Below, one piece after another: positions 1,082 to 40,000 of a stretch of DNA of 40,000 bases; positions within the stretch are counted from its first letter, which is position 1, and each line of letters starts with the position of its first letter. The stretch is taken from positions 1,392 through 41,391 of the forward strand of contig CAWCTL010000005.1 in NCBI GenBank assembly GCA_963798575.1. The letters run 5' to 3'. The stretch comes from an uncultured Alphaproteobacteria bacterium. GTDB taxonomy: Bacteria; Pseudomonadota; Alphaproteobacteria; Rhizobiales; Rhodomicrobiaceae. The notes beneath the pieces are model-generated. The model was given only the letters and a program-made list of their open reading frames with translations, did no database searches and was not told the DNA's origin. The translations under genes and the position numbers were made by a program.

Positions 1082-1142
1082 CTCAACTTCCGATTTCGGC
1101 CTTCTCCGGGCCTACGGTTTTATCCGCAGCGGGTACCAAGCG

Positions 1143-3031: not shown

Positions 3032-3185
3032 TTCGCCATTGAAACCGGCTTCGAGAAAGGCGTGGAGCGCAGCACCCGCCTCAATGACGGCCCCCGGCGC
3101 GGCTATCCCCGCCGCATCAAAGCCTTCGCTTAGAGCGCGCCGCTTGATCCATTGCTCAAGCCCCTGTCCTGACTTTGCTGAATCA

Positions 3186-3335: not shown

Positions 3336-3380
3336 CTCCGCACACATAGGAATACCTTCCGCCCTCTTTCAGGCCCCGCT

Positions 3381-4067: not shown

Positions 4068-4097
4068 CGCGCCGAACTTAGCACCGGATTGCCTGGA

Positions 4098-5081: not shown

Positions 5082-5321
5082 AGCGGACCCGTCTCTTTGA
5101 AGCGCTTGCGCGAGGATGCGATGCTGAAGGCATAACGTGCCTTTGCGCGAATGGAAAGCCGTGGCATGGCCCAAAGGGAAAATTTGCGGCGCCGGAGCGC
5201 CGGCGCGAGCGTGGAGTCCTCACTCGGGGCATGACCGGAGCTGTTCAAAGATCCTGACAGCACCACCAACTCACGGAAAACTAGAAGAACCTACGATCCC
5301 GGTCAAACGGCTGGACTCAAG

Positions 5322-8300: not shown

Positions 8301-8549
8301 TCGATGTTTTGGTTCCGTCCTGAGGCTCTAGTTCAGCTGGCAACCGATTTCTATCAGGCAGACTTTGAAAGGGAGATGGGGCAGCTTGATCGAAGCCTAG
8401 CGCATTTCGTGGAGAGGGCGTTCCTACCTTTCTGTGAAATGGAGGGCTTCCAGGTTCTTACCAACGAACAGATTGAAGAGCGCACCAAAAGCGGGCGGGT
8501 GCTCGTCAAAAGCAGCGAATATGAATTCGCCAGATCACAAAAAAGATAA
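5322..8549 (+). CDS. Fused SAM-methyltransferase / WbsX-type glycosyltransferase / RgpF (rhamnan synthesis F) polysaccharide-biosynthesis protein
   Basis: 1075 aa. N-terminus is class I methyltransferase-like (VVELGAHRGFSYCCF...LLHIDGLH...VVLLHG). The middle is WbsX/GH99-like (AFYLPQFHPIPENDEWWGEGFTEWTNV...NAWNEWAEG). The C-terminus is RgpF-like (ICHLYHQDRWPEIL...NRGRDIGPFL...KIHSKKS). Confidence 0.8.
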   Translation: MSNLLAAKRVTRTDVVRYLAVKFISPSSFWTPDYVVESAWFEHAPFAFWLIEAGRPRVVVELGAHRGFSYCCFCQAIERLGLNAKAYAIGSWEGDGHADFYGEDIFQELSAHHERYASFSRLVRSTFGEALLHLEDGSVDLLHIDGLHSGEDIKQQFESWQPKLSSRGVVLLHGTHDRQGGASQLWSRIKREYPSFEFLHGHGLGVIGAGPEQSDELLEFFALSSDGASARTVRDAYARLGDHVTALHSNEALAEMAEDERQQLLLERSGREQQRASENSSRKDETSDHHARLEAAYAELRLARRRPLTNLRRYMRWKTARYILKLNWVLPRSAIKWASRRLEKNLPDRRDADSRTGETPRTKKNWPFIIKALDTLARQKWLFSERRIYKFEKSLEKRRQLLAAAQPTPGQSGVFGQTPVPDALSEKLFQPLFSAATDKGVEYLPYSKNQKVKSRIKAIAFYLPQFHPIPENDEWWGEGFTEWTNVSKAVPQFRGHYQPRLPDALGYYDLRLPIIMESQVALAKNYGIYGFCFYHYWFSGGKRLLDLPLNDYINNKNINFPFCICWANENWTRRWDGNEQDILIEQKYTIHDDLQFIEDLAAYLTDSRYIRVNGRPLIIVYRVNLLHDPKRTVETWRSYCKEKGIGDPYLVAAQSFDILDPRPYGFDAAVEFPPHGCGATMPQVQQLDLINTDFDGIVYDYADTTKLWQTASIRPDYTLFKTVMPSWDNQARRPGGGHAFFGSSPFLYRWWLRNACEITDNYQSDSEKFIFINAWNEWAEGAYLEPDRRFGYAYLEATKAATSEFSGGSLTPVKLPKASCPGTAVICHLYHQDRWPEILTYLHKFPHEFDLYITITADLENTVAHSISMNFDNAKIIRLPNRGRDIGPFLEVLRGIRQLPYRSICKIHSKKSPHRIDGDKWFFGLMNELLGSRDAIRAITSEFANNPRLGMVGPAQHLLRFTAFTTGMERYETVFEKRYGLNCRKADSNFFAGSMFWFRPEALVQLATDFYQADFEREMGQLDRSLAHFVERAFLPFCEMEGFQVLTNEQIEERTKSGRVLVKSSEYEFARSQKR

Positions 8550-8681: not shown

Positions 8682-8766
<85 letters not shown>

Positions 8767-8955: not shown

Positions 8956-10191
8956 ATGCGCGACAAGCTCACGGATACAGCGATCCGCAACACAAAGCCG
9001 CGGCCGAAAGAATTCAAGCTTTCGGACGGCGGCGGTCTTCATTTGCTCATCCGGCCGAACGGCTCGAAGCTATGGCGCTTCCGTTACCGCTACGATGGAA
9101 AAGAGAGCATGATCGGGCTGGGAAGCTACGAGCTTGGCTCGCCTGATCACGTTCCGCTCGCTATGGCGAGAGAGCGTTGCTTTGATGCGCGCCGCCTTTT
9201 GAATGCGGGGCAAAATCCGTCGAAGGTTCGCAAAACGCCAGCACTGGCCAGTGGCGCGGCGGACCATCTACCCGGGCACACTTTCGAGAGCGCCGCTCGC
9301 CAGTGGGTGGAATCCCGAAAAAAATCTCTCACACCGAAATATGCGCGGGCGATCAACGGGCGCCTTGAGCGCCTTGTTTTTCCCAAGATTGGCCAGCGGG
9401 ACATCGCAAGCATTACGGCGCCGGATCTGTTGAAGCTAATCAAAGAGATCGAGAAAGAGGCCGTTTATCTCGCAAGGCGGGTGAAAACCATTTGCGGACA
9501 GATTTTCCGGTATGGCGTCGCGCATGGATGGTGCGAGCGCGATCCGAGCCGCGACATCAACGACGGTCTAGCGATGCGGCCACGGGTAAAGCACCGGGCA
9601 TCTCTGAAGGCGAGTGAACTGCCCGATTTCTTCAGCCGGCTAAACCACTATTACGATGGCTACGAGATTACGAAACTTGCAATGCACTTCATCATCCTGA
9701 CGGCGGTCCGGACAGATGAACTCCGCTTTGCGCCCTGGAGCGAAATCGAGAATTTGGAAGGTGAGGCGCCGCTATGGCGAATACCACCGGAGCGCATGAA
9801 GATGACACGGCCCCATTTGGTGCCGCTCGCGCCCCAAGCCGTGGCAATTCTCAAGCGAGCCCGCACCCTTTACCCCGAGTCGAAGCTTATTTTTCCAAGC
9901 CAAGAGAGCCGCACCGGCTTTATGAGCGAGAACTGTCTCCTCTATGCGATCTATCACCTCGGTTTCAAGGGCAAGGCGACCGTCCACGGCTTCAGGAGCA
10001 CGTTCAGCACAGTTTTGAATGAGAACGGCTTTAGCAGCGACTGGATAGAGCTGCAGCTTGCGCATTCAGAAAATAACGACGTGAGGGCTGCTTATAACGC
10101 GGCGCAATGGCTTCCGCAGCGGCGGGAAATGCTGGAATGGTGGGCGGCCTACCTTGATAAACACGCAAGTTACGCCGAAACTACGCAATAG
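8956..10191 (+). CDS. int: Tyrosine integrase, P4-type with DUF4102 arm-binding N-terminus
   Basis: N-terminus LTDTAIRNTKPRPKEFKLSDGGGLHLLIRPNGSKLWRFRYRY is the DUF4102 signature. C-terminal catalytic region has HGFRSTFST...LAHSE...AYN. Confidence 0.9.
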   Translation: MRDKLTDTAIRNTKPRPKEFKLSDGGGLHLLIRPNGSKLWRFRYRYDGKESMIGLGSYELGSPDHVPLAMARERCFDARRLLNAGQNPSKVRKTPALASGAADHLPGHTFESAARQWVESRKKSLTPKYARAINGRLERLVFPKIGQRDIASITAPDLLKLIKEIEKEAVYLARRVKTICGQIFRYGVAHGWCERDPSRDINDGLAMRPRVKHRASLKASELPDFFSRLNHYYDGYEITKLAMHFIILTAVRTDELRFAPWSEIENLEGEAPLWRIPPERMKMTRPHLVPLAPQAVAILKRARTLYPESKLIFPSQESRTGFMSENCLLYAIYHLGFKGKATVHGFRSTFSTVLNENGFSSDWIELQLAHSENNDVRAAYNAAQWLPQRREMLEWWAAYLDKHASYAETTQ

Positions 10192-11073: not shown

Positions 11074-11349
11074 ACAGCAACAATCGCATCCTGAAATGCA
11101 AAACGCCCCCCTCGATGGCAGGGCGTCTAACGTGTTTGTGTGTGTGTGTCTGGTTGTCAGTTTCGCGTCAGTACTTGCTCAATTGTACCGCGTGAGCCGA
11201 CTCAATTCTGCTTGCTCAGGGCAGGAGAGCCAAACTGCAACTGGTCTAAGGTCTACGAAAGGTCAGTAACGGCAATGAATGATAACCCGAAAATAGAGAT
11301 TCGGTAGCGCCGTTGCAAGTCTTTTTGTGGGGCTTTGAGGGCACACCAC

Positions 11350-12570
11350 ATGGAACTTTCAACAGAAACGTGGCGTGAGGGATACGCCGCTCAACAGCCG
11401 CCGATCAGTTTTGCCGAGATCGAAGGCAGGTCTTTCAACGAAAGCCGCGACCGGGGGCCTCTGAAGGAGCGCTTTTTCGCATCGCTGCCCAAATTCCCGT
11501 TTTGCAGTGACGATCTCAAAAATCACGGCTCTTGGCGCGAGCCGAAAAGCAAGGCGATCACGATGCCGTTCATCGGGCCGAACACTCGCGGCCTAGTAAG
11601 CACCATCAACGTCGACCTCGACTATGAGGATGCCGCCTTCGCTTGGGAAGAGGCGAACGTCACGCCTCCGAACTGGATAACCAAAAACCGGCACAATGGC
11701 CGCTGTCACTACGGCTGGCTTATGGAGCATCCAGTTTCAAGGGGGATGAATAGCAGCCCGCGCGCAATCAATCTTTACGAGTTTGTGCGGCGCGGGCTGA
11801 CCGTTCGCTTGAAGGGTGACCGCAACTATTCGCACATTCTAACCAAAACCCCGGATCACCCGAAATATCAGACGACGTGGCTGTCCAGTAAGCCCCACAG
11901 CCTGCTGGACTTTCTTGTGTTTCTTGAGCCGGAGGACATGCACCATTGGAAGCGGCCAAAGCAGGACGGAAACGAGTTTGCCGAGCGCGGCCGGAATTGC
12001 AGCCTGACAAGCGACCTTGCGAAATTCGGGCTCAGGCAAGCGCTCAAGTGCCAGGACGCTGGCCACGGATTTCACGACTTCGCAAAACGCATGCGAGCCT
12101 ATGCGTTCGACCTGGATAGCAGTTTCGCCGAGACGCTTGGCGTCCGGGAGGTTCTGGGCATCGTCAAGTCAGTTACGCCGTGGGCTTGGCAGAGCGCTTC
12201 GCACAGCGTGTTCTCTGAAATCCAACGCTTGCGGGCCTTCAAACGCTGGTATGGCCACGTTTCGGCTGAGCGCGAACAGCCTTGGATGGCTCTAGGGGTC
12301 GGCAGACGCACCTGGTACTACCGGAAGGCTAAAGGCCTACTCGCCCCCAAAAAGGGGCGTCTATCTGATAAGGCATTGTGCAACGAGCAGTCTAACTATC
12401 TATCTGAGCATCCACTGCGCGGCTTTTCTGAAATCGCGAACGGCCGAATTTCCGCCGAAGCATCAAAACCCTGGAAGCAAGCGAACGTCTCGCGGGCGAC
12501 TTGGTATTCCAAAAGGGCGAGCGGCTTGCTGGTGCCTGAAATCACGTCGCATGAAAGGTCATCGTCATGA
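11350..12570 (+). CDS. Replication initiation protein (Replicase/PriCT_1 primase-like type)
   Basis: INVDLDYEDA...NGRCHYGWLMEHPV...GDRNYSHILTKTPDHP...ERGRNCSLTSDLAKFGLRQA resembles the plasmid/island Replicase + PriCT_1 arrangement, recalled from family knowledge. ATG at 11350 with GAGGG 7 nt upstream; the track start at 11335 is TTG. Confidence 0.75.
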   Translation: MELSTETWREGYAAQQPPISFAEIEGRSFNESRDRGPLKERFFASLPKFPFCSDDLKNHGSWREPKSKAITMPFIGPNTRGLVSTINVDLDYEDAAFAWEEANVTPPNWITKNRHNGRCHYGWLMEHPVSRGMNSSPRAINLYEFVRRGLTVRLKGDRNYSHILTKTPDHPKYQTTWLSSKPHSLLDFLVFLEPEDMHHWKRPKQDGNEFAERGRNCSLTSDLAKFGLRQALKCQDAGHGFHDFAKRMRAYAFDLDSSFAETLGVREVLGIVKSVTPWAWQSASHSVFSEIQRLRAFKRWYGHVSAEREQPWMALGVGRRTWYYRKAKGLLAPKKGRLSDKALCNEQSNYLSEHPLRGFSEIANGRISAEASKPWKQANVSRATWYSKRASGLLVPEITSHERSSS

Positions 12571-18045: not shown

Positions 18046-21000
18046 TTATCCTGACGCAGACCAGGAATTATTCGTCCGTCGGCCGATGGCAAGGCGACCG
18101 ATGATAGCTCTATCCAGGACAGAAAAAACAAAACCGATGTGGCGAGTGCGAAGGCCGAGGAGCTTTTTCTGTTGGGCGCAGATCGCGAGTTGTTGGCCAT
18201 CGGGTGATGCTTGAACGCTTTCCACGGTGCATCTTGAGTCGCTAGCCGCCGAAATGCGGCATTCGAGGTCGCTCCAAAGCTCTCGCCGATCCGAAGCGCG
18301 ACGAGTGCCATTGAGCATCTCAGCGAGGGGCAAGAGCCTGAAGGGTAGCTGGCGGGTCACGAAGGAGTAGTGGATCTGAAGCCCAGTAAGCTCGCAAGCC
18401 CGGATGTCGTCGGGATGGGCATCTCGACCGCTCCAGGCGCAGGGCAGGGCCTCTGACTTTGTACAGAACTTTCCCAGGTCGGACCTGAGGGCCTCGTCTT
18501 CAAGACAGCGCAAGCTTGATCGGCTGCTCGTTACGAAAAACTGCTTGAGAGCTTTTCGGCCGCTGACCGAGGAGGCTTCCAACTCGGAGGGGACAACCCG
18601 CCGCCGGGATACGACGCACTCTTGGAGAAGGCCCGGGAAAACGGCCACACCCGTGACAGCGCACTGTTCGGCTTCGCTAGCCAGAAGAACGCGCCCAGTG
18701 ACGCCACATGTGATGAATTCCGATATATGACCCGTTCGGCCGGAGACTTCTGACCGCCTAACCTGGTCGGCGCGGAAGCGCTTGCCTGACACTTCGCTGA
18801 CGGCAAGCTCTGGAAGAAGAGCGTTAGCATTGGTGAAGGCACAGCGGGCGAAGTGCTCAGGCTCCGCCTTGCGACCACTCAACGAAGATATCTTGAGCAG
18901 CGACCGCAGGACGAGGTTGCCCGTAACCGCCGAGGGCTCAACTTCTGTTGACAGCACACGCTTGCCGCTCAGGCCGCAGACGGTCATGTACTCCGGAAGG
19001 GCGTAGCGATCGGAGGCAGCTGACCTAACGAGAAGGTGGCGGAGGACGCGCATGCCGGAGACGGCGCATTCGCCCATGGCATCGATCGGAGCGCCGGTGC
19101 CCGATTTCGCGCACGTGGCAAAGGCAGGAGCCTCGGCGATCTGGGAGGCTGACGGCACCACACGGATGGCGGAGCTGGATTCAGTTTGACCATCGAACGT
19201 GTAAGTGACGCGGTTATCCAGGATGCGATGGACGGTGCCGCGAAGCCCAGTGACGGTCGTTTGCAAGCGGGGTGTGAAGTCATCCTCCAGCTTCTTGCTC
19301 ATGCGCAGATCGTTGCCTGCAGCGTGGACCTCTTCCGCCCTTCGCTCCGTGTAGAACCGGCAGAACTCCGCAATTCCCGGATCGAGCATAACGCTGCGTG
19401 TCAAGCGATCGAGTGAGACACCAACTTTTTCGGGGAACTCGACGACGGGGGGCAGGGGATCGAGCGCGGCCACGCCGTCTGCTACCTGGTGATCGGCGCT
19501 GGAGCAGTCGACAGGGATCAGGCGCTCATAACTATCGTGGGCAACGGTTGCTCTCACCTGGACCAACGCCTGCCCTTCGAAAGCGCGCGTGACCTTCACC
19601 AGCTTTGTCGATCGGAGCGTGCCGCCAAAGGACTTCACCCAGTCGGCGCATAGGGCCTGAGCGCGTTGTTGCGGATTGGCGTCGGCGTCGCGAACGTCAT
19701 GCACGCCGGATTGGGTAACACGGGTGATGAGCTGGTCAAATGCCTGAGAGCCGGGTGCATAGAGGATGGAGCGTGCCTCGGGGTCCGGCTCCTCCGAGAA
19801 GCGGATCCGGTCGACCCGGCCATCGAGGTCACACAGAAACGTGTCAGGTGACTGCTCAGAGAGGTTGGCTCCCAACACCTGCAGTCCGGCCAGAACGAAG
19901 TCGCGCGCCGTCATGGAGCGCGTTTGAGGCGGCAAGTCGGGGCTACGGGGGCCCTTGAAGGCCGCACCATCCATCGCGCCGAGCATCTCGTTGATGGTGT
20001 TCTCCTCGGCATCGAGGGTCCGTCGTGCGCGGTCGATACTGTCCCTAGCTGCTTGTGTCGCTGCATCGACGTCTTTTCCCTCCAAAGAGGAGAGCACGAG
20101 ACGGAGAATTTCATCTTCGAAGCTTTGGGCACGTCCCTCCTCACCGTCTCCCATACCCGAAGCTTGGAGGAGAGATTCGATGTCGCCGATGGCGTGGGAA
20201 GCCATCTGCAGCTTCTCCATCAAGCGCCCAACGATGTAGTCCTCGAATGTGCCGGACAGCGTGACGCTGTAGACAAGGACACTGGCGTGGTCCGATCCAA
20301 GGCGCTGGATGCGTCCGATACGCTGTTCGACAATCATCGGATTCCACGGCAGGTCGTAATTGACCAGCACGTTAGCGGCCTGGAGGTTGACACCTTCGGA
20401 GCCCGCTTCCGTGGAGACGATGACGTTGAGCTTCGGCGGCGGAGCCTTGAAGGCGGCGATGGTCGCTTGGTTCTTGCCGGTCGTTTCGCCGTTGATAATG
20501 CCGACTGGAACACCCAAAGATTCCAAATAGGCCTGAATAGTCGTCTGCGTCTCTCGACGTTGCGTAAAAACGACCATCCGCCAATTTTGCGGGTTTTCGC
20601 GTTTCAGCTTGTCGACCAATGTGGCGAGCCCTTGGAGCTTCGCGCTCATCTTCATGCTTTTGACGACGGCCCGGAACTCGCCGGCTACTCCGGCCGGAAA
20701 GGTGCCTTTCTTCGCCATGTTCTCGAGCTGGAGCGCGCACGCATCGGGGCTGCTCGTCAGTGCCTGTAGAATGCTAATCTGGGCCAATCGATTGAGCTTT
20801 TGGATCGGTTTCGCGATGAGCTTATGCAGCGCCCATTCCTCTGGTGTGGGTGTGACACCCTGCCGAAAGACCTCGCGTTTGGGGAAATGCAGTTGGGCGT
20901 CGGCACGGCGAACGCGCGACATGTACCCATAGACGATCGACCGAAATTGATTCTTAGCCTCGACCTTGAGTTGTCGCGCCTGCGTGCGGTTGTCGGCAAT

Positions 21001-21747
21001 GAAGTTTCGGGCGAACATGCCCTCGCTGCCGAAAGGGTTTTGATGGCCACGGGCGACTGTGAGCAGGTCAACCAAGGAATAGAGATCCCAGAGCCGATTC
21101 TGGATCGGCGTCGCCGTCAGCATGAGGACGAACTTAAATGTGCGTTCGGCTAGAACTTCGCGGAAGCGGACAGCCACCTGAGGTGGGTTTGGAACACCAT
21201 GCAAGTTCCGGAGCTTATGGGCCTCGTCGAGTATTAGCATCTGGAAGCGATCGCGTGGTAGCCGGTTGATGTACACGCGAGCCGAGTGGTAAGTCGTGAT
21301 GACGGCGCCCACGTCGCCATCAGGGTCAGCGTCGAGGAGCTTCTTGCCTGGGGCCACAAGAGCAGGAATGTTGAACTTGGTCTCCAACTCCTCCTTCCAC
21401 TGCGGACCTAAGAGCTTAGGCGCGACGATGATAATCCTGTTCAGTCGGCGCCTGGAGATGAGTTCGCTTGCGATCAATCCAGCGCTGATCGTCTTGCCGA
21501 GGCCAACGTCGTCAGCAAGCAGCGTGACGGGAAGGCGACGGCAGAAGGTTATGAGGTTATTTACTTGGTGCTGGAAAGGCTTAACACGGTCGTTCCAGCG
21601 CACCTCTGACTTAAGGTCCTGGCGATTGTTGATGATGATCGGATCAACGAGACCCCACTCCAAGCCCGCGCAATACACGTCGAACTCGGCGGGATTTTTC
21701 AACCGGCGGAGCGGCTTGGTCTGCACCTGGTGTGGCTGTGAGGGCAT
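18046..21747 (-). CDS. SNF2-family helicase with a large C-terminal extension ending in 17 x 15-aa repeats
   Basis: Helicase motifs LADDVGLGKT, ILDEAH, LMLTATP and QRIGRIQRLG. The ATG at 21747 is preferred over the TTG at 21765. Residues ~885-1138 carry periodic [C/S]-x-[V/L]-[S/T]-G repeats. Confidence 0.9.
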   Translation of the reverse strand: MPSQPHQVQTKPLRRLKNPAEFDVYCAGLEWGLVDPIIINNRQDLKSEVRWNDRVKPFQHQVNNLITFCRRLPVTLLADDVGLGKTISAGLIASELISRRRLNRIIIVAPKLLGPQWKEELETKFNIPALVAPGKKLLDADPDGDVGAVITTYHSARVYINRLPRDRFQMLILDEAHKLRNLHGVPNPPQVAVRFREVLAERTFKFVLMLTATPIQNRLWDLYSLVDLLTVARGHQNPFGSEGMFARNFIADNRTQARQLKVEAKNQFRSIVYGYMSRVRRADAQLHFPKREVFRQGVTPTPEEWALHKLIAKPIQKLNRLAQISILQALTSSPDACALQLENMAKKGTFPAGVAGEFRAVVKSMKMSAKLQGLATLVDKLKRENPQNWRMVVFTQRRETQTTIQAYLESLGVPVGIINGETTGKNQATIAAFKAPPPKLNVIVSTEAGSEGVNLQAANVLVNYDLPWNPMIVEQRIGRIQRLGSDHASVLVYSVTLSGTFEDYIVGRLMEKLQMASHAIGDIESLLQASGMGDGEEGRAQSFEDEILRLVLSSLEGKDVDAATQAARDSIDRARRTLDAEENTINEMLGAMDGAAFKGPRSPDLPPQTRSMTARDFVLAGLQVLGANLSEQSPDTFLCDLDGRVDRIRFSEEPDPEARSILYAPGSQAFDQLITRVTQSGVHDVRDADANPQQRAQALCADWVKSFGGTLRSTKLVKVTRAFEGQALVQVRATVAHDSYERLIPVDCSSADHQVADGVAALDPLPPVVEFPEKVGVSLDRLTRSVMLDPGIAEFCRFYTERRAEEVHAAGNDLRMSKKLEDDFTPRLQTTVTGLRGTVHRILDNRVTYTFDGQTESSSAIRVVPSASQIAEAPAFATCAKSGTGAPIDAMGECAVSGMRVLRHLLVRSAASDRYALPEYMTVCGLSGKRVLSTEVEPSAVTGNLVLRSLLKISSLSGRKAEPEHFARCAFTNANALLPELAVSEVSGKRFRADQVRRSEVSGRTGHISEFITCGVTGRVLLASEAEQCAVTGVAVFPGLLQECVVSRRRVVPSELEASSVSGRKALKQFFVTSSRSSLRCLEDEALRSDLGKFCTKSEALPCAWSGRDAHPDDIRACELTGLQIHYSFVTRQLPFRLLPLAEMLNGTRRASDRRELWSDLECRISAASDSRCTVESVQASPDGQQLAICAQQKKLLGLRTRHIGFVFSVLDRAIIGRLAIGRRTNNSWSASG

Positions 21748-21775
21748 TTTGCGGGACAGCGGCAATCAAATGAAA

Positions 21776-24400: not shown

Positions 24401-24784
24401 CAGCGCAGAGCCCCCGGGGCTGTGGCGCTAAGTGGTCTTCCTCATCGCTGGCACCTCAACACTGCGTGCCACACATTCGCGCAGCGTTGCGGGCAGACGT
24501 GCCTGGGGAGCCGCGTATCTTGCCAAGACGTTTACACGCTAAGGCCGCAGGCGAGCATGAGGCGGAGGGTTCGCAAACTTGCGAAGGCTCATGTGTGCCG
24601 GGAAGCGTCGTAGATGGATGGTGCTGCAATTCGGCAACAGACGGCGTTTTTGTCCCGCCGCCGCTAGTGTTCCGCTACGAGTTGCGTGGCGAGCGCAATC
24701 TCCTCTGTGGGTACGTTTGAGGGTACACTTGCGCCTTTCTGAATATTTTATCGGGTAATCAATGCCTTAGAAGCCATCGTGGAA

Positions 24785-24800
24785 CCTCTTCTGGGCACCA
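24785..24800. repeat. att-type repeat: second copy of the tRNA-Leu 3' end
   Basis: CCTCTTCTGGGCACCA is identical to 8751-8766. An integrase gene starts 88 bp downstream. Confidence 0.8.
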
Positions 24801-24887: not shown

Positions 24888-26504
24888 ATGGTCCTTAGAA
24901 TGTCCCGCCCTTGGAGGCACCCCCGAACCGGCACGTGGTATCTCAGAGAGCGCATTCCCCGCGATACTATCGAGAAGGCGAGAGGCCGCGTTGTTCACTT
25001 CCCGCCTGAGGCTGGCGGCTCCAAGGTCACGGTAGGCAAGGAGCACGTCAAAGCCTCGCTCCGCACCAAAGAAGTGAGGGAGGCAAAGGACAGGCACGCG
25101 GCGGCTTTGGCGCATCTCAAGCGCTTCTGGGATACGGTACGGAAGGGGCCGCAACCTCTTACGCACAGACAGGTTACCGCCTTAGCCGGGGAGACTTACA
25201 GGGCCTTCGCCAAGGGCTTTGAGGATGACCCCCTGTCTCCGCAACATTGGCGGCAAGTGGCCGAAGCGAACGAGGCCGCGAACCAAGGGGGGTTCGGCGT
25301 GGCCCCCCTCATGATCCTGGACAGCGAGAAGCAACGGCGAGCCGTCGCGATGGAACTGCGCTTTGGGAAGCTTGCGGACGGCGTTCTAGCGGCTCGCGGC
25401 GTAGTCATTGACCACGATAGCAGAGGACGGCTCCTGGACGCGCTACGCGATGCCCTCAATCAAGCCGCAGAGAAACTTGAGCGGAACGCAAAAGGGGATT
25501 ACCGGGCGGACCCGGACGCAGAGCGTTTCCCCAAATGGGAACCTAAGAAGGACGCAAAGGCCGGGCTAGGGCATAGGCGGCGACTAAGCGCGGTGTTTGA
25601 GGCATGGGCACTGGAGGCGGCGGCGTTAGGGCGCTCCGAAAAGACCGTGAAGGAATACCGCTCCTTAATCCAACGCTTCATCGCCTTTTTGGGGCATGAC
25701 GATGCGGCTAAGGTCACTCAGGCGGACATTGTGGGATGGAAGGCTAAGCGCTTAGCCGAAAAGATTGCGCCCAAGACTGTGAAGGCCGGAGACCTCGCAG
25801 CCTTAAAGTCAGTGTTCAAATGGGCGAACGAGAACGGCCTGATTACTACCAATCCTGCAAAGGATGTTACCCAAAAGCTCGGCAGGAAGCGCCAGGAGAG
25901 GTCTAAGGGGTTTAGTGACCAAGAGGCCGGAGCCGTGCTTAAAGCCGCCCTGGACTACGCTGCGCCGCCCCGCGAGCATCCTAAGACCGCCGCCGCAAGG
26001 CGTTGGGCACCTTGGCTGTGTGCATATACCGGGGCGCGTATCGGGGAGATCTTACAGCTCAGGCGCGGTGACGTTTCTCAAAGGGATGGCGTCTTGGTCA
26101 TGCGGATAACGCCAGAGGCGGGAACCGTGAAAGACAAGAAGTGGCGCGAAGTGCCGTTGCATCCGCATCTTGCTGAGCTTGGCTTTGCGGAGTTCGTTGA
26201 GGGGAGCGCAGAGGGCTACCTTTTTGTCAACTGCCGGGACGCGAACGCAAGGGGGACGATACAGGGCGTCAAGAACCGCGTCTCAGAGTTTGTGCGGGTG
26301 GTCATTCACGATAAGCGCGTGGCTCCGAACCACGCATGGCGGCACCGCTTCAAGACGATAGGCATCGAGGCCGGGATTGCTGAGCGGGTATTGGACGCAA
26401 TTTGTGGGCACGTCCCCCGCACTGTTGGCGAAGCTTACGGGGAGGTCTCATTGCACGCCAAGATACAAGCTATCGGAAAGTTGCCACGCTACACCTTGGC
26501 CTAG
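24888..26504 (+). CDS. int: Tyrosine integrase (538 aa)
   Basis: Catalytic region YTGARIGEIL...HAWRHRFKT...CGH...EAYGE. The N-terminus MSRPWRHPRTGTWYLRERIP is shared with the stub at 34120. Confidence 0.9.
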   Translation: MVLRMSRPWRHPRTGTWYLRERIPRDTIEKARGRVVHFPPEAGGSKVTVGKEHVKASLRTKEVREAKDRHAAALAHLKRFWDTVRKGPQPLTHRQVTALAGETYRAFAKGFEDDPLSPQHWRQVAEANEAANQGGFGVAPLMILDSEKQRRAVAMELRFGKLADGVLAARGVVIDHDSRGRLLDALRDALNQAAEKLERNAKGDYRADPDAERFPKWEPKKDAKAGLGHRRRLSAVFEAWALEAAALGRSEKTVKEYRSLIQRFIAFLGHDDAAKVTQADIVGWKAKRLAEKIAPKTVKAGDLAALKSVFKWANENGLITTNPAKDVTQKLGRKRQERSKGFSDQEAGAVLKAALDYAAPPREHPKTAAARRWAPWLCAYTGARIGEILQLRRGDVSQRDGVLVMRITPEAGTVKDKKWREVPLHPHLAELGFAEFVEGSAEGYLFVNCRDANARGTIQGVKNRVSEFVRVVIHDKRVAPNHAWRHRFKTIGIEAGIAERVLDAICGHVPRTVGEAYGEVSLHAKIQAIGKLPRYTLA

Positions 26505-33221: not shown

Positions 33222-33907
33222 CGCAGCGTCAAGCCCCTCAGGGACAGGACTACCAGCCCGACCCATTCGAGGTCCAGATTGCAGCGCTGGTGATCCTCTA
33301 CCGGAGCGAGTTTCTAGGCCACGACCGCAGCACCTTTGCGGAGCTTATTAGCCTGTCCAAAGACTGTCTCGACTACGGGAGGCGATTGGAGAAGCTAAGC
33401 GGAAAACCATCGCCATTTGACCCGCACGCCAAGGAGGAAGCCACCCCGGCAGTGGTCTTCTTTGAGAGCGATGAGTTCGTAGGCCACACCCAGCATGTCC
33501 CGAAGCCTTCAATCGGGATGGAGATCAGGCACTTCCGCCTGATGCCGCGTGCTGAGGCCGAAAGGTCGCAGCTTGGCCCGACACCGGCGGCGGCTCGCTC
33601 GCTTGCTGTTGTCTCCCTCATTCAACATCCCCGCATGGCCTGGGAGGTCTTGCATGCAGAGACCAGGGAGCACCGCCGCCGTCAGGGCATTGGAACCATG
33701 CTTTACGACCGGATTGCCGCCTTCCTCGACACAAAGCTTTGGCCTTCCGGCTGGCTGTCGGACGATGGCTATCGCTTTTGGCAGAAGCGGAACGGCGAAG
33801 CCGTCCAGTGGCATCGCCAGCTCGACTATTTGCCGGGGCTGTGGCTCAGTCCGAAGCAGCTCCTAACCTTACAGGCCATCGCTGAGGCAAAGCTGGCGTT
33901 GGCATAG
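33218..33907 (+). CDS. Hypothetical protein with a weak GNAT-like motif
   Basis: HRRRQGIGTMLYDRIAAFL resembles GNAT motif A (R/Q-x-x-G-x-G/A). The assignment is tentative. Confidence 0.55.
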   Translation: MTQRQAPQGQDYQPDPFEVQIAALVILYRSEFLGHDRSTFAELISLSKDCLDYGRRLEKLSGKPSPFDPHAKEEATPAVVFFESDEFVGHTQHVPKPSIGMEIRHFRLMPRAEAERSQLGPTPAAARSLAVVSLIQHPRMAWEVLHAETREHRRRQGIGTMLYDRIAAFLDTKLWPSGWLSDDGYRFWQKRNGEAVQWHRQLDYLPGLWLSPKQLLTLQAIAEAKLALA

Positions 33908-34015
33908 ACGGCGGCCTTCACCACGGTTGCCTTTGGAACACGGAGCTGGTACACATTCTTAATCGAGGAAGCGAAAAAGGGCTTGTGGATCAGTGGGTAA
34001 GATGTGATCGGCCTA

Positions 34016-34034
34016 AGTCCTCTTCTGGGCACCA
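34016..34034. repeat. att-type repeat: third copy of the tRNA-Leu 3' end
   Basis: AGTCCTCTTCTGGGCACCA (19 nt) is identical to the tRNA 3' end. An integrase stub starts 86 bp downstream. Confidence 0.8.
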
Positions 34035-34119
34035 TCCCCTTCTCAAGGGATTGATTTACAAAGAATTCATGCGAAATCAGGGACTTCAGGCTGCCCGAGT
34101 GGTACAAACGGGTGGTACA

Positions 34120-34383
34120 ATGGCTCTTGCAATGTCACGTCCCTGGAAGCATCCCAAAACTGGCATTTACTGGCTTCGGAAGGCTGTTCCCGAAGACCTC
34201 CGATCTCTTGTCGGCAAGAGGGAGGAGAAGCGTAGCCTCAAGACCCGAGATCCTGGGGAAGCCAAGCGCCGGCTCCTAGAGGCGCCTACGGAGCTCGAAG
34301 TCCGATGGGCGAACTTGCGGGCTGGCCCAAAACGCCTGACCGAGCGAGACGCCCATGAGCTTGCTGTCACGATCCATGATTAG
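34120..34383 (+). pseudogene. Truncated tyrosine integrase (N-terminal 87 codons only)
   Basis: MALAMSRPWKHPKTGIYWLRKAVPEDL parallels MVLRMSRPWRHPRTGTWYLRERIPRDT of the 24888 integrase. The upstream leader is also similar (TGGTACA.ACGGG). The ORF stops far short of the catalytic domain. Confidence 0.8.
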
Positions 34384-34409
34384 TAGTTGGAGAGGTATCG
34401 CGACAATCC

Positions 34410-34796
34410 CAGCGAGCAGGTGTTCTGGCGGCTAAAGGCGAGACCTTCGCGACCGCGCTCGAGTCGCTGGAAAAGCTTGCCCAGGCCGGAATCAAGCGCT
34501 CGGTGATGATCCTCAACGGTTCAGGCGGCCAGGCGCTGTCGCAGCAGCACGCTATAAACTCGGCCCGGCTATTGAATGCCGCTCAGCCTGAGTATCTCGC
34601 CACCTTGGTCGTGAGCTTTCCGCAGGGCGAAGAGCGCCTGCGCGCCGGCTTTCCGGGCTGGGAACCGCTCAGCGTGCTGGGGCTGATGCAGGAAATGCAG
34701 CTGTTCATTTCCACGCCGGAGCCGAAGCGAACCATATTCCGCAGCGACCACGCCTCAAACTGGCTTGTGCTGAAGGGCACGGCGGGGGGCGGATAA
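34410..34796 (+). pseudogene. C-terminal fragment of a radical-SAM-family protein
   Basis: The open frame GVLAAKGETFATALESLEKLAQAGIKRSVMILNGSGG...RSDHASNWLVLKG resembles the distal part of a radical SAM barrel. There is no CxxxCxxC N-terminal part, and the fragment abuts the integrase stub. Confidence 0.5.
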
Positions 34797-35107
34797 GCCC
34801 CGGCTCCTGCAAGAGTTGGCGGCGGCCATTGCCTCAGGCGGCCCCGCTGCGGCCTGCATGGGCGCGCGGCCTGTAGTTGGGCAAGCTCAAAGAGGCGGCA
34901 AGCTTTCGCTTAGTAACTGTCACAATCTTTCATAAACGCCTGCACTCTTTTTCCAAACTTCATAAGAACTCAACCACTATCACACTTTGGTTGTGTCCAT
35001 AATACTAGAATTTGAATAATAAAGGTAATCATAGTGCAAATCTGACACAGACCTCCGATTACGACTCGCTTATCTACTGGAGCGTGTCTCATGGAGGATT
35101 ACAGGCT

Positions 35108-36649
35108 ATGATTGCACTGCGACGCGGCATGTTGAATGCATCCAAGTCCAAGGGTGTGGCTGCCCGCACGAGCACTTGCCTTATGCACCTGCGCTCTTGG
35201 CCGTCCATCTCGAAAGCGGGGCTTTTTATCCTCGCGGCGGGGGCGATCCTCCAGCCGCGGCCCGCCTCGGCCGTACCGTCCTATGCGCGCCAGACGGGGC
35301 AACCCTGCTCGACCTGCCACACGATGTGGCCCGAGCTAACGCCCTTCGGCCGCCAATTCAAGCTGATGGGTTACACCTCTGGCGGGACGCGGTGCAACGA
35401 CGGCTCAGCCAAATCGGACCAGACGCAGGTTCCGCTCTCCGTGATGGCTTGGCCGGCCACTTTCACGCACTACAATGACAAGAATGCCAATCCCACTAGC
35501 CCGCCGAACAGCATCAACGACAACGATTGGCTCCCTGGGCAGTTCAGCCTGTTCGTCGCCGGGCAGCTTTATTGCGATGTGGGCTCCTTCGCCCAGGCGA
35601 CCTACGACCGCGCAGGGAACGCCTTCGGCTGGGACAACACCGATATCCGCTATGCAAAGTCCGGCGTGATCGACGGAACGAACGTCGTTTACGGCATCAC
35701 AGCCAATAACAATCCTAGCGTTCAAGACGTTTGGAATACCACGCCGGCCTGGTTCTTCCCTTATATAACATCGGAAGTTGCGCCGGCTCCGGCGAACGGC
35801 ACAATGCTCGTCACGTCTCAGTTTGGCGCCCAAGTAGGCGGTGTTGGCGGTTATGTCTGGATCGACAATAGCTTCTACGCCGAATTGACGGCTTATGGGG
35901 CATTGCCTCCGCGCCTTGCAACGGATCTTGGCGCCGATCCTACCGCCAACAGATTTAACGGCTCAGCGCCATATTGGCGGTTTGCCTACGAAAAAACCTG
36001 GGACCAGAACTCGCTGATGTTTGGCACGATCGGTATGTACGCCGATCAGCAGATCACAAACGCGGGCCTTGGCCTTGGGGGCCCGCAGTCAGCTCTGGCT
36101 ACCGGCATAACCGATCCCACTCTCGATGCTGGCTTCGACACGCAATATCAGTGGATCGGGGCGGAGCATATTTTTTCGGTTAGGGGGCTTTACGTCTGGC
36201 AGACTAAGCAGAACAACATCGAGAATCACTTCGCGAGCCTGGCAGGTACCCCCCTCGCTAACGCAAGCGATGAGCTGAACGATATTAACATTTCTGCAAC
36301 CTATATGTACAACCGCACATATAATCTTACTGTGGGATGGTTCGATACTTGGGGCACGTCGGATACGGCGCTTTATGGAACGTTGACCGGCATTGGCGGA
36401 ACGCCGGTAGGGCCTTCCGCCAATGGCTCGCCGAACTCGTCCGGCTGGAACTTTGAGCTAGCCTATTCGCCCTTCATGAATGGCGGGGCTCCTGACATCT
36501 GGCCGTGGTTCAATGCCAGGATTGGCGTCATTTACACCCACTACGACGAGTTCAACGGCACCTCCGGGCTTGCTCCTGCAGCCAATGGAACGCTCGTAAA
36601 GGCCAGCGGCAACGACACAGTATTCTTCTACACCTGGCTCATGTTCTAA
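35108..36649 (+). CDS. Fused monoheme cytochrome c / outer-membrane beta-barrel (Cyc2-like)
   Basis: ATG at 35108 with GGAGGA 9 nt upstream. A signal peptide ending ASA is followed by a single CSTCH haem motif (35306-35320) in YARQTGQPCSTCHTMWPELTPFGRQFKLMGY. About 430 aa of alternating Gly/aromatic-rich beta-strand-like sequence follow, ending FFYTWLMF (OMP C-terminal Phe). Confidence 0.7.
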   Translation: MIALRRGMLNASKSKGVAARTSTCLMHLRSWPSISKAGLFILAAGAILQPRPASAVPSYARQTGQPCSTCHTMWPELTPFGRQFKLMGYTSGGTRCNDGSAKSDQTQVPLSVMAWPATFTHYNDKNANPTSPPNSINDNDWLPGQFSLFVAGQLYCDVGSFAQATYDRAGNAFGWDNTDIRYAKSGVIDGTNVVYGITANNNPSVQDVWNTTPAWFFPYITSEVAPAPANGTMLVTSQFGAQVGGVGGYVWIDNSFYAELTAYGALPPRLATDLGADPTANRFNGSAPYWRFAYEKTWDQNSLMFGTIGMYADQQITNAGLGLGGPQSALATGITDPTLDAGFDTQYQWIGAEHIFSVRGLYVWQTKQNNIENHFASLAGTPLANASDELNDINISATYMYNRTYNLTVGWFDTWGTSDTALYGTLTGIGGTPVGPSANGSPNSSGWNFELAYSPFMNGGAPDIWPWFNARIGVIYTHYDEFNGTSGLAPAANGTLVKASGNDTVFFYTWLMF

Positions 36650-36704
36650 CTTCAGAAAGAAACGGCGAAATCTTCGCAGAACAAGGAAACGCGGAGCTCA
36701 GATC

Positions 36705-37379
36705 ATGAAAGCCGGCAGTTTAAAAGTGGCAGTGCATACCGCCGTCCTGGCGATACTCATCCCAGCCGCCGCTCGTGCAAGCGAGCTTCAAGAGAAACTA
36801 CCAGCCGCCAGTCACGCAGGTGAGCTTGAGGAGAAATTAGACTTTTGCACGAATTGCCACGGCGATCACTTCCAAGGTTTCGCCGCGTTTTTTACAGCGC
36901 CGCGGCTTGCCGGTCAGCCGGTCCAGTATCTTGAGAACCAGTTCAGGGGGATCAGAGACCGTGTTCGCAATGATCCTACAACTCAAGAATTTATGTACCC
37001 GATTCTTACCCATCTCGATCCGCATCTACAGCCGGGCATTGCAAAGTACTTAAGCGAGCTCAATCCGCCGCCTGGCGATGGCGGTCCAAGGCATCTTGTA
37101 GCTGGGGGGAGGAAGATATTCGAAGAGGGGGTTCCAGACGAGAACGTTCCAGCATGCGCGGCCTGCCACGGCCCGGACGCGCATGGAAGCGAACAGGTCC
37201 CGCGTTTGGCAGGTCAAATGTATGCCTACGTGGTCGATCAACTGGTTCAGTGGCGTAAAGGCTACCGCGCCAAAGACCCGGCGAACCCAAGCGATGAGAA
37301 TGTCATGGTGCCGATCGCGAAAGGCTTAACCAAGAACCAGATCGAAGCAGTTGCCGCCTATGTCAGCTACCAGAGATAG
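36705..37379 (+). CDS. Dihaem c-type cytochrome (c4 family)
   Basis: Signal peptide, CTNCH and CAACH motifs, and two LAGQ..Y...Q signatures. Confidence 0.85.
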   Translation: MKAGSLKVAVHTAVLAILIPAAARASELQEKLPAASHAGELEEKLDFCTNCHGDHFQGFAAFFTAPRLAGQPVQYLENQFRGIRDRVRNDPTTQEFMYPILTHLDPHLQPGIAKYLSELNPPPGDGGPRHLVAGGRKIFEEGVPDENVPACAACHGPDAHGSEQVPRLAGQMYAYVVDQLVQWRKGYRAKDPANPSDENVMVPIAKGLTKNQIEAVAAYVSYQR

Positions 37380-37392
37380 GAAAGCCGGGATC

Positions 37393-38094
37393 ATGAAGCT
37401 CATCAAGTTGACAATGGCGGTCCTGGCGATTGCTTCTACTCCACTCTTTGCTGGATCGGGCAATGCGGAAGAAGCCCATATAACCTGCCGGACAAATCCT
37501 GGCGGGGAATGGCCAATCAATCCGCCAGCTTACGTGGTAAGAAATTGCGCGTTTTGCCACGGCGACGCAAATCTTGAAGGCCGAGGCGTTGCGCCGCGGC
37601 TGGCTGGACAGCACCAGGAATATATCGTCATTCAGTTCGAGCGGCTTCTGAATGGAACGCGGAACAATCCATTCTCTCTCCAATATATGACGCCCGCTGC
37701 GAGGCAGATACTGCCGGACTCTTGGTGTGAGTTGGGTGCTTATATCTCGACACTGCCGCCCGTAACCATTGCGGACGGGAACCCGGACCCGGCACTGAGA
37801 GCCATAGGCGAGGATATTTTTCTCCACGGAGTACCCGAGGATGATGTTCCCGCCTGCCAGTTTTGCCATGGTCCGCAGGCCCAGGGCATCGGAAGGTTCC
37901 CTCTACTGGGCGGTCAATCCTACTACTACTTGAAAAGAAGGTTGGTGCAGTGGATTGAGGGGTATTCTCCCACATCGCCCAATATGCCCAAAATCGCCGC
38001 CCACCTGAATCCCGATCAGATCGAAGCCGTTACCTCGTACCTAAGCTTCGTCCAATACACCGCAACCATCCAGGAAACGGGGAACCACCCATGA
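37393..38094 (+). CDS. Dihaem c-type cytochrome (c4 family)
   Basis: Trimmed to the ATG at 37393 (MKLIKLTMAVLAIASTPLFA signal peptide). CAFCH and CQFCH motifs. Confidence 0.85.
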   Translation: MKLIKLTMAVLAIASTPLFAGSGNAEEAHITCRTNPGGEWPINPPAYVVRNCAFCHGDANLEGRGVAPRLAGQHQEYIVIQFERLLNGTRNNPFSLQYMTPAARQILPDSWCELGAYISTLPPVTIADGNPDPALRAIGEDIFLHGVPEDDVPACQFCHGPQAQGIGRFPLLGGQSYYYLKRRLVQWIEGYSPTSPNMPKIAAHLNPDQIEAVTSYLSFVQYTATIQETGNHP

Positions 38095-38867
38095 ACAAAC
38101 TTTGTGCCGGCTTTCTTGGCCTGGCATTGGCGGGGGCGCCGTTTCCCGCAGATGCAGCCGATTGGGGTAGCGCCTCTGAAGTACCTGGCTTTGCCGTCGT
38201 AGCCGTTCCCGCTCCCGTTTGGGCCGGCTTCTATGGAGGCGTCGACGTCGGCTATGGTTGGAGCGCTGCGAGCGATCAGCTCGCTTGCGGCCCTGCCTGC
38301 TTCGCGGCCACTGGCGCCGGCCCGTTTGCAGGGGTGTCGTCGAACGGCTGGCTGGAGGGCTTGCATGCGGGCTACAACTGGCAAGGTTTCGGTCTTGCCG
38401 CGCTTGTTGTTGGCATTGAGACCGATGTTGCAGCTGCCTCCGTCTATGGCCAAGGTTCCGATGCGATTGGCGACTTCTACCACTCGCGTCTTGAGGCGCT
38501 TGGCACGGTGCGCGGCCGTATTGGCTATACGTGGGATCGCACCCTTCTCTACTTCACCGGCGGTTTGGCCTGGGGCACCATGTTTAACGAAGCAAGCTTC
38601 ACCGGCGCTAACGGTGCCGACTATTCCACAAATCCTACCGTAGCGGGCTATGTGCTGGGGGGCGGCGTCGAGTATAAATTCTGGCACGATCTGTCGGTCA
38701 AGGTCGAGTATCAATACGTCGATCTCGGCAAGAACAACCCTGTAGATATTGCAGCCGGCACCGGAGCCTACACCGCCAACGGCGGGACAGTTCGCAACGA
38801 TGCGTTCAACGTCGTCCGGGTCGGCTTCAACTGGTGGCCATTTGAAACTTATGTGCCGTTGAAATAA
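38091..38867 (+). CDS. Outer-membrane beta-barrel protein (Omp25/Omp31-type porin family)
   Basis: ATGA overlap with the upstream cytochrome gene. Signal peptide, then GFYGGVDVGYGW...GGGVEYKF...VRVGFNWWPF. Confidence 0.85.
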   Translation: MNKLCAGFLGLALAGAPFPADAADWGSASEVPGFAVVAVPAPVWAGFYGGVDVGYGWSAASDQLACGPACFAATGAGPFAGVSSNGWLEGLHAGYNWQGFGLAALVVGIETDVAAASVYGQGSDAIGDFYHSRLEALGTVRGRIGYTWDRTLLYFTGGLAWGTMFNEASFTGANGADYSTNPTVAGYVLGGGVEYKFWHDLSVKVEYQYVDLGKNNPVDIAAGTGAYTANGGTVRNDAFNVVRVGFNWWPFETYVPLK

Positions 38868-39141
38868 CCTTGCTCCCGCCTCTCGCCTCAGGTCGCGGAA
38901 TGCGGCTTACCCTGGAGCCGCCCCGCAAAAGAACGTCTTTAGTTAAGATGCTTGGTCTAATGCCTACCTTTCTATTAAGAGGAAAGCAAATATCTCAAAC
39001 AATACCCTATCGAAACTTCTCGGGTTTGAATAACCTGAAACAAAGAATTAGGGATTGCTAGCGTAGCCTTCGATAATAAGGGATGCAGGTTCAGTAAGGC
39101 GGACCTGCCAGCCCCCTCATGCAACGCGCAGAGGCTGCATC

Positions 39142-39843
39142 ATGAAGGTTGTTAGCTTTCGCTTGACGTTACAAACGGTAGTCGCTGGGCTTATTCTCCC
39201 GGCCGCAGCCTATGCCGCGGAACTGGGAGGGCACTACCACCACCACCACCACAGGGCCGCGCTTGCGGCCCATCCTAGCAAGACCGGACTTGAGGCCAAA
39301 GTCCAATTTTGTTCCGAGTGCCACGGCAAGGCGTTCCACGGCTATCAGGCATACTACACCATACCCCAGCTTGCAGGCCAGCAGCCGCAGTACCTCGAAA
39401 ACCAGTTCAACTCGATACACGACCGTGTGCGCAACGACCCTATCGCACAAAGGTTTATGTGGCCGATTCTTTCGCATGTACCGAAAGATTTGTTTCCGGC
39501 CATAGCACAGCACATAAGCGAGCTTGATGCAGCGCCCGCCGCGGACGGTCCGAGGCATCTCGTCAACGCCGGCAGGAAGATTTTCGAAGAGGGCGTTCCT
39601 GACGCTAATGTTCCGGCCTGCTCCGCCTGCCACGGACCGGATGCACACGGTCAAGACCAGGTTCCGCGTCTGGCAGGCCAGCTTTATCCCTACTTGGCGA
39701 GTGAACTGGCAGAGTGGCAGAAAGGCTACCGGAGCAAAGATCCCGCGGATCCAAGCAATGAGAACACCATGGTGCCGATCGCGGGCGCATTGTCCAAGGA
39801 GCAGATAAAAGAAGTTGCGGCCTATCTCAGCTATCAGAAATAG
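39142..39843 (+). CDS. Dihaem c-type cytochrome (c4 family), paralogue of 36705 with an N-terminal His tract
   Basis: CSECH and CSACH motifs. Roughly 60% identical by eye to the 36705 product. HYHHHHH is encoded at 39232-39252 by a (CAC)n run. Confidence 0.85.
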   Translation: MKVVSFRLTLQTVVAGLILPAAAYAAELGGHYHHHHHRAALAAHPSKTGLEAKVQFCSECHGKAFHGYQAYYTIPQLAGQQPQYLENQFNSIHDRVRNDPIAQRFMWPILSHVPKDLFPAIAQHISELDAAPAADGPRHLVNAGRKIFEEGVPDANVPACSACHGPDAHGQDQVPRLAGQLYPYLASELAEWQKGYRSKDPADPSNENTMVPIAGALSKEQIKEVAAYLSYQK

Positions 39844-40000
39844 TGGTAAAGTTGTGCGGCGATGCAAATGGGGGCATCCTCTGGGGATGGATCTGGATCT
39901 GCGCGACCCTTCCCTTCCTGAAGCTCAGGTGCGTGCGTTGGATCTTGCTTAATGGATTTTTAGAAGGATTGCGCTTTCGCGATGTATTCATGCCTACTTC

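Follow-up and report, generated by a model that had tools for sequence, protein, structure and literature searches.

We describe here a cluster of five genes, the first of which encodes a fused cytochrome-porin of the Cyc2 family, in a 40,000-nucleotide stretch of DNA from an uncultured Rhodomicrobium (contig CAWCTL010000005.1 of GenBank assembly GCA_963798575.1, positions 1,392 to 41,391; hereafter the window, whose own numbering is used throughout). Inspection of the open reading frames (ORFs) of the window shows that the five genes, G1 to G5, lie intact on the plus strand between positions 35108 and 39843 in the order cyc2-c4-c4-omp-c4. G1 (35108..36649) encodes the Cyc2-family monohaem cytochrome-porin, with a product of 513 amino acids (aa) if translation begins at the ATG at 35108, or of 488 aa if it begins at the ATG at 35183. 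It is followed by the genes for two predicted periplasmic dihaem cytochromes of the c4 type, G2 (36705..37379; 224 aa; haem motifs CTNCH and CAACH) and G3 (37393..38094; 233 aa; CAFCH and CQFCH), by G4 (38091..38867; 258 aa), which encodes a predicted 8-strand outer-membrane beta-barrel of the Omp25/Omp31/OmpA type, and by G5 (39142..39843; 233 aa; CSECH and CSACH), which encodes a third dihaem c4 cytochrome and is a paralogue of G2. G2 and G5 belong to one c4 subtype and G3 to a distinct one. An earlier reading of the DNA letters (the original prediction) had placed two dihaem c4 cytochromes, a translationally coupled Omp25-type barrel and a third dihaem paralogue behind a Cyc2-like gene, and all of these are found at the positions it gave.

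The first four genes are closely packed, with 55 nucleotides (nt) between G1 and G2, 13 nt between G2 and G3 and a 4-nt overlap of G3 and G4, and they therefore look like one operon. The ATG of G4 overlaps the stop codon of G3 (cATGA), which confirms the translational coupling of G4 to G3. Ribosome-binding sites are seen 10 nt 5' of the G1 ATG at 35108 (GGAGG), 5' of the ATG of G2 (GGAG) and 5' of the ATG of G3 at 37393 (AGGAAAG). A spacer of 274 nt with a GC content of 50% separates G4 from G5, so that the latter may have its own promoter. Scans for sigma-70 promoters and terminators gave scores no better than those of shuffled sequence, and no match to Rfam was found in 33900-40000.

The features by which Cyc2 proteins are recognized have been set out by Keffer et al. 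2021 (PMC8406198), viz., a signal peptide, a single CXXCH haem motif, the signature AXPXFAR[Q/K][T/Y], regarded by these authors as unique to Cyc2, a PXL motif lying four residues past the CXXCH, a size of 365 aa or more and a porin of 16 strands. All of these can be recognized in G1, with a single deviation. By inspection, the leader of G1 has a basic n-region and a hydrophobic stretch, AGLFILAAGAIL, followed by PASA/VP, and it ends in ...AGLFILAAGAILQPRPASA/VPSYARQTGQPCSTCHTMWPELTPFG (also written ...QPRPASA/VPSY), where the slash marks the predicted cleavage site. The only CXXCH of the protein, CSTCH, lies near the mature N-terminus, its first Cys being residue 12 past this site, in keeping with the original prediction, which had put it within about 15 residues of the cleavage. 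The motifs follow one another as AVPSYARQT-GQP-CSTCH-TMW-PEL, so that the signature agrees at eight of nine positions with a conservative Tyr in place of Phe, and PEL stands where PXL is expected. The product is 488 or 513 aa long, is modelled with about 16 strands as discussed below, and terminates in ...YTWLMF with a final Phe. The Tyr is thus the sole departure from the published description, and the Cyc2-like assignment made in the original prediction is upheld. However, the literal PXFAR expression used as a screen by Keffer et al. (PMC8406198) would reject G1, and the Tyr variant would in general escape a strict motif filter. The 513-aa product is 100% identical to the 'hypothetical protein WCD20_12795' of a Rhodomicrobium sp. 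metagenome-assembled genome (MAG; contig JBAVSE010000247.1 of GCA_049695435.1), where the contig stops inside G2. Long leaders are typical of the family, the signature starting at about residue 54 in most homologues after an extended basic N-region that precedes the hydrophobic core (35108-35272 in G1), and the upstream start of G1 at 35108 fits with this.

An alignment of 41 homologues at 43-84% identity to G1 has 62 invariant columns, C42, C45 and H46 among them, so that a chance pattern can be dismissed. Exactly one haem motif is present in every homologue (41/41) and a terminal Phe in 40 of the 41. The consensus of the signature is AVPSFARQT, with constant spacing, and among the 40 motif-bearing homologues the variable position is evenly divided between Phe (20) and Tyr (20), while PXL is found in 39. 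Two further cysteines, Cys71 and Cys131 in the 488-aa numbering (codons 35393-35395 and 35573-35575), are invariant in all 41 of these homologues but are absent from a 40%-identical homologue of Methylocapsa. The first periplasmic turn of the barrel bears one of them, and the other comes just past the haem domain; the two may be joined by a disulfide, which would tether this domain.

G1 does not match any Pfam or NCBIfam model and has no sequence relative in the PDB. Seeding a search for homologues with the Acidiphilium pACRY03 protein did not bring up a named Cyc2 among the top 120 matches, and cluster look-ups of ten representatives of 481-489 aa yielded no informative names. A connection to published Cyc2 homologues could nevertheless be made through Supplementary Table 2 of He et al. 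2017 (PMC5566968), 'Proteins homologous to A. ferrooxidans Cyc2', which lists a 465-aa protein of Methylocapsa palsarum NE2 (34.1% identity, E-value 2e-53) along with proteins of Bradyrhizobium sp. STM 3843 (490 and 514 aa) and Ralstonia solanacearum CFBP2957 (446 aa). G1 aligns over its full length with the 465-aa ORF of M. palsarum NE2, which we equated with the table entry by organism and length, at 40% identity over 480 residues and an E-value of 1e-99. The STM 3843 relative has an ORF of 514 aa from its first ATG, the length given in the table, and a genome scan finds a match to G1 on the CFBP2957 replicon at 34% identity (E-value 4e-58). In addition, a separate network study ties the A. 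ferrooxidans Cyc2 to homologues of Hyphomicrobiales, Burkholderiales and Acidiphilium, and the copies on Acidiphilium plasmids are full-length relatives of G1. Going by its sequence and modelled structure, G1 is a member of the Cyc2 family, and it probably belongs to the part of the family related to the A. ferrooxidans protein (Cluster 2).

The AlphaFold2 (AF2) model of G1, built from the 41-homologue alignment, has a pLDDT of 77 and a pTM of 0.79, with most of the barrel at 80-96. About 440 residues are modelled as a beta-barrel ending in the terminal Phe, which bears out the barrel-like body of about 430 aa with an aromatic C-terminus that had been read from the sequence, and the strand count for which the original prediction had asked comes to 16 long strands, or 17 if the segment 85-89/93-97 is taken as two. 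As in general porins, the third external loop is long (42 residues, 176-217); of the periplasmic turns, all are short but one, a conserved turn of 15 residues at 429-443. Foldseek searches with the model against the PDB retrieve OmpT, OmpF, OmpC, OprP (PDB identifier 2O4V) and AlgE with E-values of 1e-8 to 1e-6, of which OmpF, OmpT and OprP are listed as 16-strand and AlgE as 18-strand barrels. OprP is among the structural matches for Cyc2 that were named by Keffer et al. 2021 (PMC8406198).

The three cytochromes G2, G3 and G5 each carry a signal peptide, two CXXCH motifs and matches to Pfam Cytochrom_C (PF00034) and Cytochrome_CBB3 (PF13442), as expected of a cytochrome c4 with two class I domains. 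G2 is 56% identical to G5 and 40% identical to G3. For all three, the best match of solved structure is 'cytochrome c-552' (PDB identifier 1H1O), with E-values of 7.8e-29, 5e-21 and 1.9e-24, respectively, and it outscores the c4 structures of Pseudomonas type. Residues 48-221 of G2 align to residues 16-181 of the 1H1O chain with both haem motifs and both Met positions in register (...fMyP... and ...vMvpIAk...). Although the PDB title says 'cytochrome c-552' only, we take 1H1O to be Cyc1 of A. ferrooxidans, the c4 cytochrome encoded next to cyc2 in the rus operon, and the analogy to the cyc2-cyc1 pair drawn in the original prediction gains support on this assumption. G2, G3 and G5 thus resemble 1H1O as dihaem class I proteins in which both CXXCH and Met positions align, but with scores of 78-104 bits they are distant relatives of it. 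G5 differs further in having a His-rich mature N-terminus, HYHHHHHR (39217-39240, residues ~29-38). Such a tail is seen in one of the 124 c4 genes of the loci retrieved for comparison (HRHRHHAH, in locus L083, which has the same gene arrangement), and may be a periplasmic metal-binding tail.

G4 matches the OMP_b-brl family (PF13505) with 47.4 bits against a cut-off of 28.7. Its AF2 model (pLDDT 83) has 8 long strands, and Foldseek matches it to the transmembrane domain of OmpA, to OmpW and to OmpX. Its relatives are named 'outer membrane immunogenic protein', which is presumably the label of Omp25/Omp31 proteins. The domain match and the model together confirm the earlier assignment of G4 as a small outer-membrane barrel of the Omp25/Omp31 type.

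The family of G1 is very large, comprising 4887 clusters (at 50% identity) at an E-value of 1e-3 or below and 692 at 1e-30 or below, and at least 590 matching stretches were confirmed in a collection of species-representative genomes. The best 80 loci are mostly from Alphaproteobacteria (Rhodomicrobium MAGs, Bradyrhizobium, Methylocapsa, Roseiarcus, Stellaceae and Hyphomicrobium), with some from Gammaproteobacteria (Steroidobacteraceae), and many of the isolate names point to MAGs from bog, palsa or peat. A c4 gene is present within 4 kb of 55 of the 86 cyc2-like genes in the loci retrieved for comparison, across several bacterial classes, and both c4 subtypes accompany 37 of them. The small OMP_b-brl barrel is found next to 24, all of which have c4 genes alongside. 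Judging from this conservation, the small Omp25-type barrel appears to be a recurrent accessory of the module; a literature search for both names together did not find a published association of Cyc2 with Omp25.

The arrangement of the module varies among these relatives. In the Bradyrhizobium loci, cyc2 is followed by the small barrel, a G2-type c4 and a G3-type c4, with a third c4 gene divergent upstream. The order in L083, which has a Cyc2-like protein at 69% identity to G1, is cyc2, a 421-aa cytochrome, the small barrel and c4; here the counterparts of G2 and G3 appear to be fused in the 421-aa protein and the third c4 gene is on the opposite strand. A Methylocystis sp. MJC1 plasmid has cyc2 followed by three genes for c-type cytochromes and no annotated barrel, and another Rhodomicrobium MAG carries a paralogous cyc2-c4-c4 set among housekeeping genes. 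On the metagenomic contig L084 (2349-12891; Cyc2-like protein 61% identical to G1), cyc2-c4-c4 comes directly after ctaB-coxC-sco1-coxB-coxA, an arrangement that recalls the logic of the rus operon; among the retrieved loci, adjacent cox genes occur only here and in the related L013. The haem-copper oxidase cluster of L084 comprises UbiA/CtaB, COX3, SCO1, COX2, COX1, DUF420 and a second COX1, and an integrase and an IS91 transposase follow its cyc2-c4-c4.

Compared with the system of A. ferrooxidans, G1 shares with Cyc2 and its homologues in Hyphomicrobiales, Burkholderiales and Acetobacteraceae the signal peptide, the one N-terminal CXXCH, the AxPx[F/Y]ARQT signature, the PXL at +4, a length of about 450-510 aa and a barrel of about 16 strands, and it differs from the A. 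ferrooxidans protein in the Tyr of the signature. The clade of G1 is also distinguished from the M. palsarum homologue by the invariant Cys71/Cys131 pair. As in the rus operon (cyc2-cyc1-cup-coxBACD-rus), cyc2 is followed by a c4 gene, but there are three c4 genes instead of one and an additional small outer-membrane barrel, whereas the genes for rusticyanin, cup and the aa3 oxidase were not found at 35-40 kb of the window. The cluster also resides in an uncultured Rhodomicrobium rather than in an acidophilic chemolithotroph. In terms of gene content, the locus is therefore best described as resembling the front end of a rus operon without being one.

Another parallel is that of a Bradyrhizobium from a pyrite-oxidizing enrichment (Percak-Dennett et al. 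2017, described in He et al. 2017, PMC5566968), in which Cyc2 is clustered with an iron-sulfur protein of high potential (HiPIP) and three periplasmic c-type cytochromes, including homologues of Cyc1 and CycA1. The present cluster likewise combines a Cyc2 gene with three periplasmic c-type cytochromes; unlike the published one, it has another gene order and lacks a HiPIP gene, and a small barrel is not mentioned in the passage on the published cluster. The identity to the Bradyrhizobium proteins is about 37-40%. Because He et al. describe a Bradyrhizobium Cyc2 with Cyc1 and CycA1 homologues, the core arrangement of Cyc2 and c4 cytochromes is already known. The Fe(II) oxidation system of cultured Rhodomicrobium vannielii, PioAB, and the MtoAB system also combine an outer-membrane barrel with a c-type cytochrome that moves electrons over the outer membrane. 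However, in PioAB and MtoAB a separate decahaem cytochrome is located inside a barrel of about 26 strands, whereas G1 has a single haem motif fused to a barrel of about 16 strands and there is no multihaem gene in the cluster. G1 has no sequence relationship to these systems and is therefore not a member of them.

[quoted passage not shown] G1 would be exported and inserted in the outer membrane as a porin of about 16 strands; its N-terminal c domain, which is short and monohaem, would lie at the pore's periplasmic side or within it, with the haem presumably attached through the CSTCH motif. A small dissolved reductant, most probably Fe2+, would enter the pore and reduce this single haem, and the electron would then be handed inwards to the c4 cytochromes, which are likely soluble in the periplasm. 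The two c4 subtypes, i.e., the G2/G5 type and the G3 type, may parallel the pair of Cyc1 and CycA1 beside the Bradyrhizobium Cyc2 (He et al.), and may serve different inner-membrane acceptors, like the Cyc1 and CycA1 branches in A. ferrooxidans. Such an acceptor could be the bc1 complex or a haem-copper oxidase, or else the reaction centre if the organism is a phototroph. G4 would be a conserved accessory, which may associate structurally with the complex in the outer membrane. The cluster is a further example of a known electron-uptake module, and we infer its iron-oxidizing function from homology and synteny.

Several observations weigh against Fe(II) oxidation by this module. Genes for rusticyanin, HiPIP, an oxidase or bc1 are not found beside the cluster within the window, and c4 neighbours are absent from 24 of the 79 loci with enough flank, so that the partnership of cyc2 and c4 is not obligatory. 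Motif scans detected no ICE box of the regulator Irr in the window and no FNR box near the cluster, and there is therefore no regulatory hint of control by iron or oxygen. The N-terminal haem region of the G1 model has a pLDDT below 50; the model therefore does not place the haem domain relative to the pore, although low confidence is expected here because the model lacks the cofactor. Keffer et al. 2021 (PMC8406198) point out that the characterized proteins are only distant relatives of much of Cyc2 Clusters 2 and 3, for which functional verification is needed, and it is on account of this caution that we rate the Fe(II) oxidation as probable and not higher. Finally, many of the organisms with close homologues (Bradyrhizobium, Methylocapsa, Ralstonia and Burkholderia) are not known to oxidize Fe(II) (He et al. 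2017, PMC5566968).

The last point leads to an alternative that we hold to be possible, if rather unlikely, namely that the same machinery serves another substrate or direction, such as the oxidation of Mn2+, of reduced humic or quinone compounds or of sulfur species, outward electron transfer, or a periplasmic detoxification of Fe(II) or reactive oxygen species without energy conservation. Close homologues are common among Alphaproteobacteria and Burkholderiales of soil and peat which, in the list of He et al., are not known to be iron oxidizers, and both Keffer et al. and He et al. say that Cyc2 may have additional functions. The size of the family (the 4887 clusters given above) and the presence of several paralogous modules per genome would agree with such a diversity; for example, two modules bear the locus-tag prefix of the MAG that contains the G1 duplicate, and L046 and L047 are from one MAG. 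On the other hand, many of the relatives' MAGs are, by isolate name, from palsa, bog and peat sites, settings assumed to supply Fe(II). Keffer et al. 2021 (PMC8406198) argue that a narrow pore with only one haem is fitted for a small ion in solution, and the members of the family that have been tested biochemically, viz., Cyc2 of A. ferrooxidans, Cyt572 of Leptospirillum and Cyc2 PV-1 of Mariprofundus, all oxidize Fe(II) (McAllister et al.; Keffer et al.).

A more far-reaching version of the Fe(II) reading, which we regard as speculative and improbable, is that the recurring set of a Tyr-variant Cyc2-type porin with the extra Cys pair, two c4 subtypes and the Omp25-type barrel as a genuine new component constitutes a distinct and undescribed version of the Cyc2 pathway, seemingly widespread among uncultured Alphaproteobacteria of peat and soil, which in Rhodomicrobium would feed electrons from dissolved Fe(II) to the photosynthetic reaction centre. 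If true, a purple bacterium would here reach photoferrotrophy through Cyc2. Cyc2-linked photoferrotrophy has been reported for Chlorobium and relatives, and cultured Rhodomicrobium uses PioAB.

The genomic surroundings of the cluster bear on its origin. The window contains a tRNA-Leu(CAG) gene (8682-8766), and the 3' 19 nt of this gene (8748-8766) recur at 24782-24800 with 3 mismatches and, as an exact copy on the plus strand, at 34016-34034, where they form the right boundary of the second of two integrase islands; in a shuffle control, none of 100 shuffles matched this repeat. The first two copies are each followed by an integrase gene (8956-10191 and 24888-26504), and the third at about 34.1-34.4 kb by an 83-aa N-terminal fragment of a DUF6538 integrase (the product annotated here in L081). 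A fourth copy of this att-like repeat was not found in 34035-40000. The repeats mark two tandem integrase islands of about 16 kb and about 9 kb along with a decayed remnant, and the Cyc2 cluster begins about 1 kb further along. Since the third repeat is exact and is followed by an integrase remnant, the placement of the cluster just beyond a decayed island at a tRNA hotspot in the original prediction holds, as does its statement that the GC content of the cluster is below that of the core (56.9% as against 62.0% in the core block, 1-5200; GC at third codon positions, GC3, 58-70% as against 71-73%). Relatives of the module are found on plasmids and beside transposases or integrases, and horizontal transfer of cyc2 is documented in the literature. 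Location, composition and relatives thus render the horizontal acquisition that had been suggested for the cluster plausible, albeit short of proof.

The same features, i.e., the position directly after the third att-like repeat and integrase remnant, a GC content 5 points and a GC3 up to 14 points below those of core genes, and the mobile settings of relatives, could also be read as those of silent or decaying mobile-element cargo that is intact by chance and unused by its host. We think this very unlikely, given that the five ORFs are full-length with plausible ribosome-binding sites, that all invariant residues of the family are kept, that G3 and G4 are translationally coupled and that the gene set recurs in L083. 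Least credible of all is the view that the CXXCH of G1 is incidental, the protein being an ordinary diffusion porin, and that its c4 neighbours are unrelated respiratory carriers, for although G1 matches no Pfam or NCBIfam model and its structural neighbours are general porins, 39-41 of the 41 homologues conserve PXL, the CXXCH and the signature upstream of it, and c4 genes adjoin the cyc2-like gene in 55 of 86 relatives from several bacterial classes.

As a marker gene for microbial Fe(II) oxidation, Cyc2 is used more widely than any other, and its function has been verified in few iron oxidizers. The present locus adds an intact Cyc2 and c4 module in the Rhodomicrobium lineage, a genus whose cultured members have been described with PioAB; in the text of He et al. 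2017 (PMC5566968), R. vannielii is not named among the holders of Cyc2. Many uncultured Alphaproteobacteria with isolate names referring to bog, palsa and peat carry the module as well, often together with a small barrel of the Omp25 type, and if the module is active, the capacity for iron oxidation or electron uptake in such habitats may exceed estimates from surveys of classical iron oxidizers. Of mild interest are the host genus, the Tyr variant, the clade-specific invariant Cys pair, the recurrent small barrel and the His-rich tail of G5, which leave the basic picture as it was.

Elsewhere in the window, a replicase-family protein (11335-12570) and, on the minus strand, an SNF2-type helicase of 1239 aa (18046-21765) are among the cargo of the islands. 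A 97-aa ORF at 34503-34796, between the integrase remnant and G1, does not match any Pfam family and is probably a gene fragment. It was considered as a conserved radical-SAM neighbour of the cluster, and this was dropped as the ORF is unrelated to the radical-SAM gene beside the Methylocystis cluster. At 5322-8549, a 1075-aa fusion of methyltransferase, WbsX glycosyltransferase and RgpF rhamnan-synthesis domains has a GC content of 49.6% as against 62% in the adjacent core genes, and since it is located directly before the tRNA-Leu gene, it may be foreign as well.

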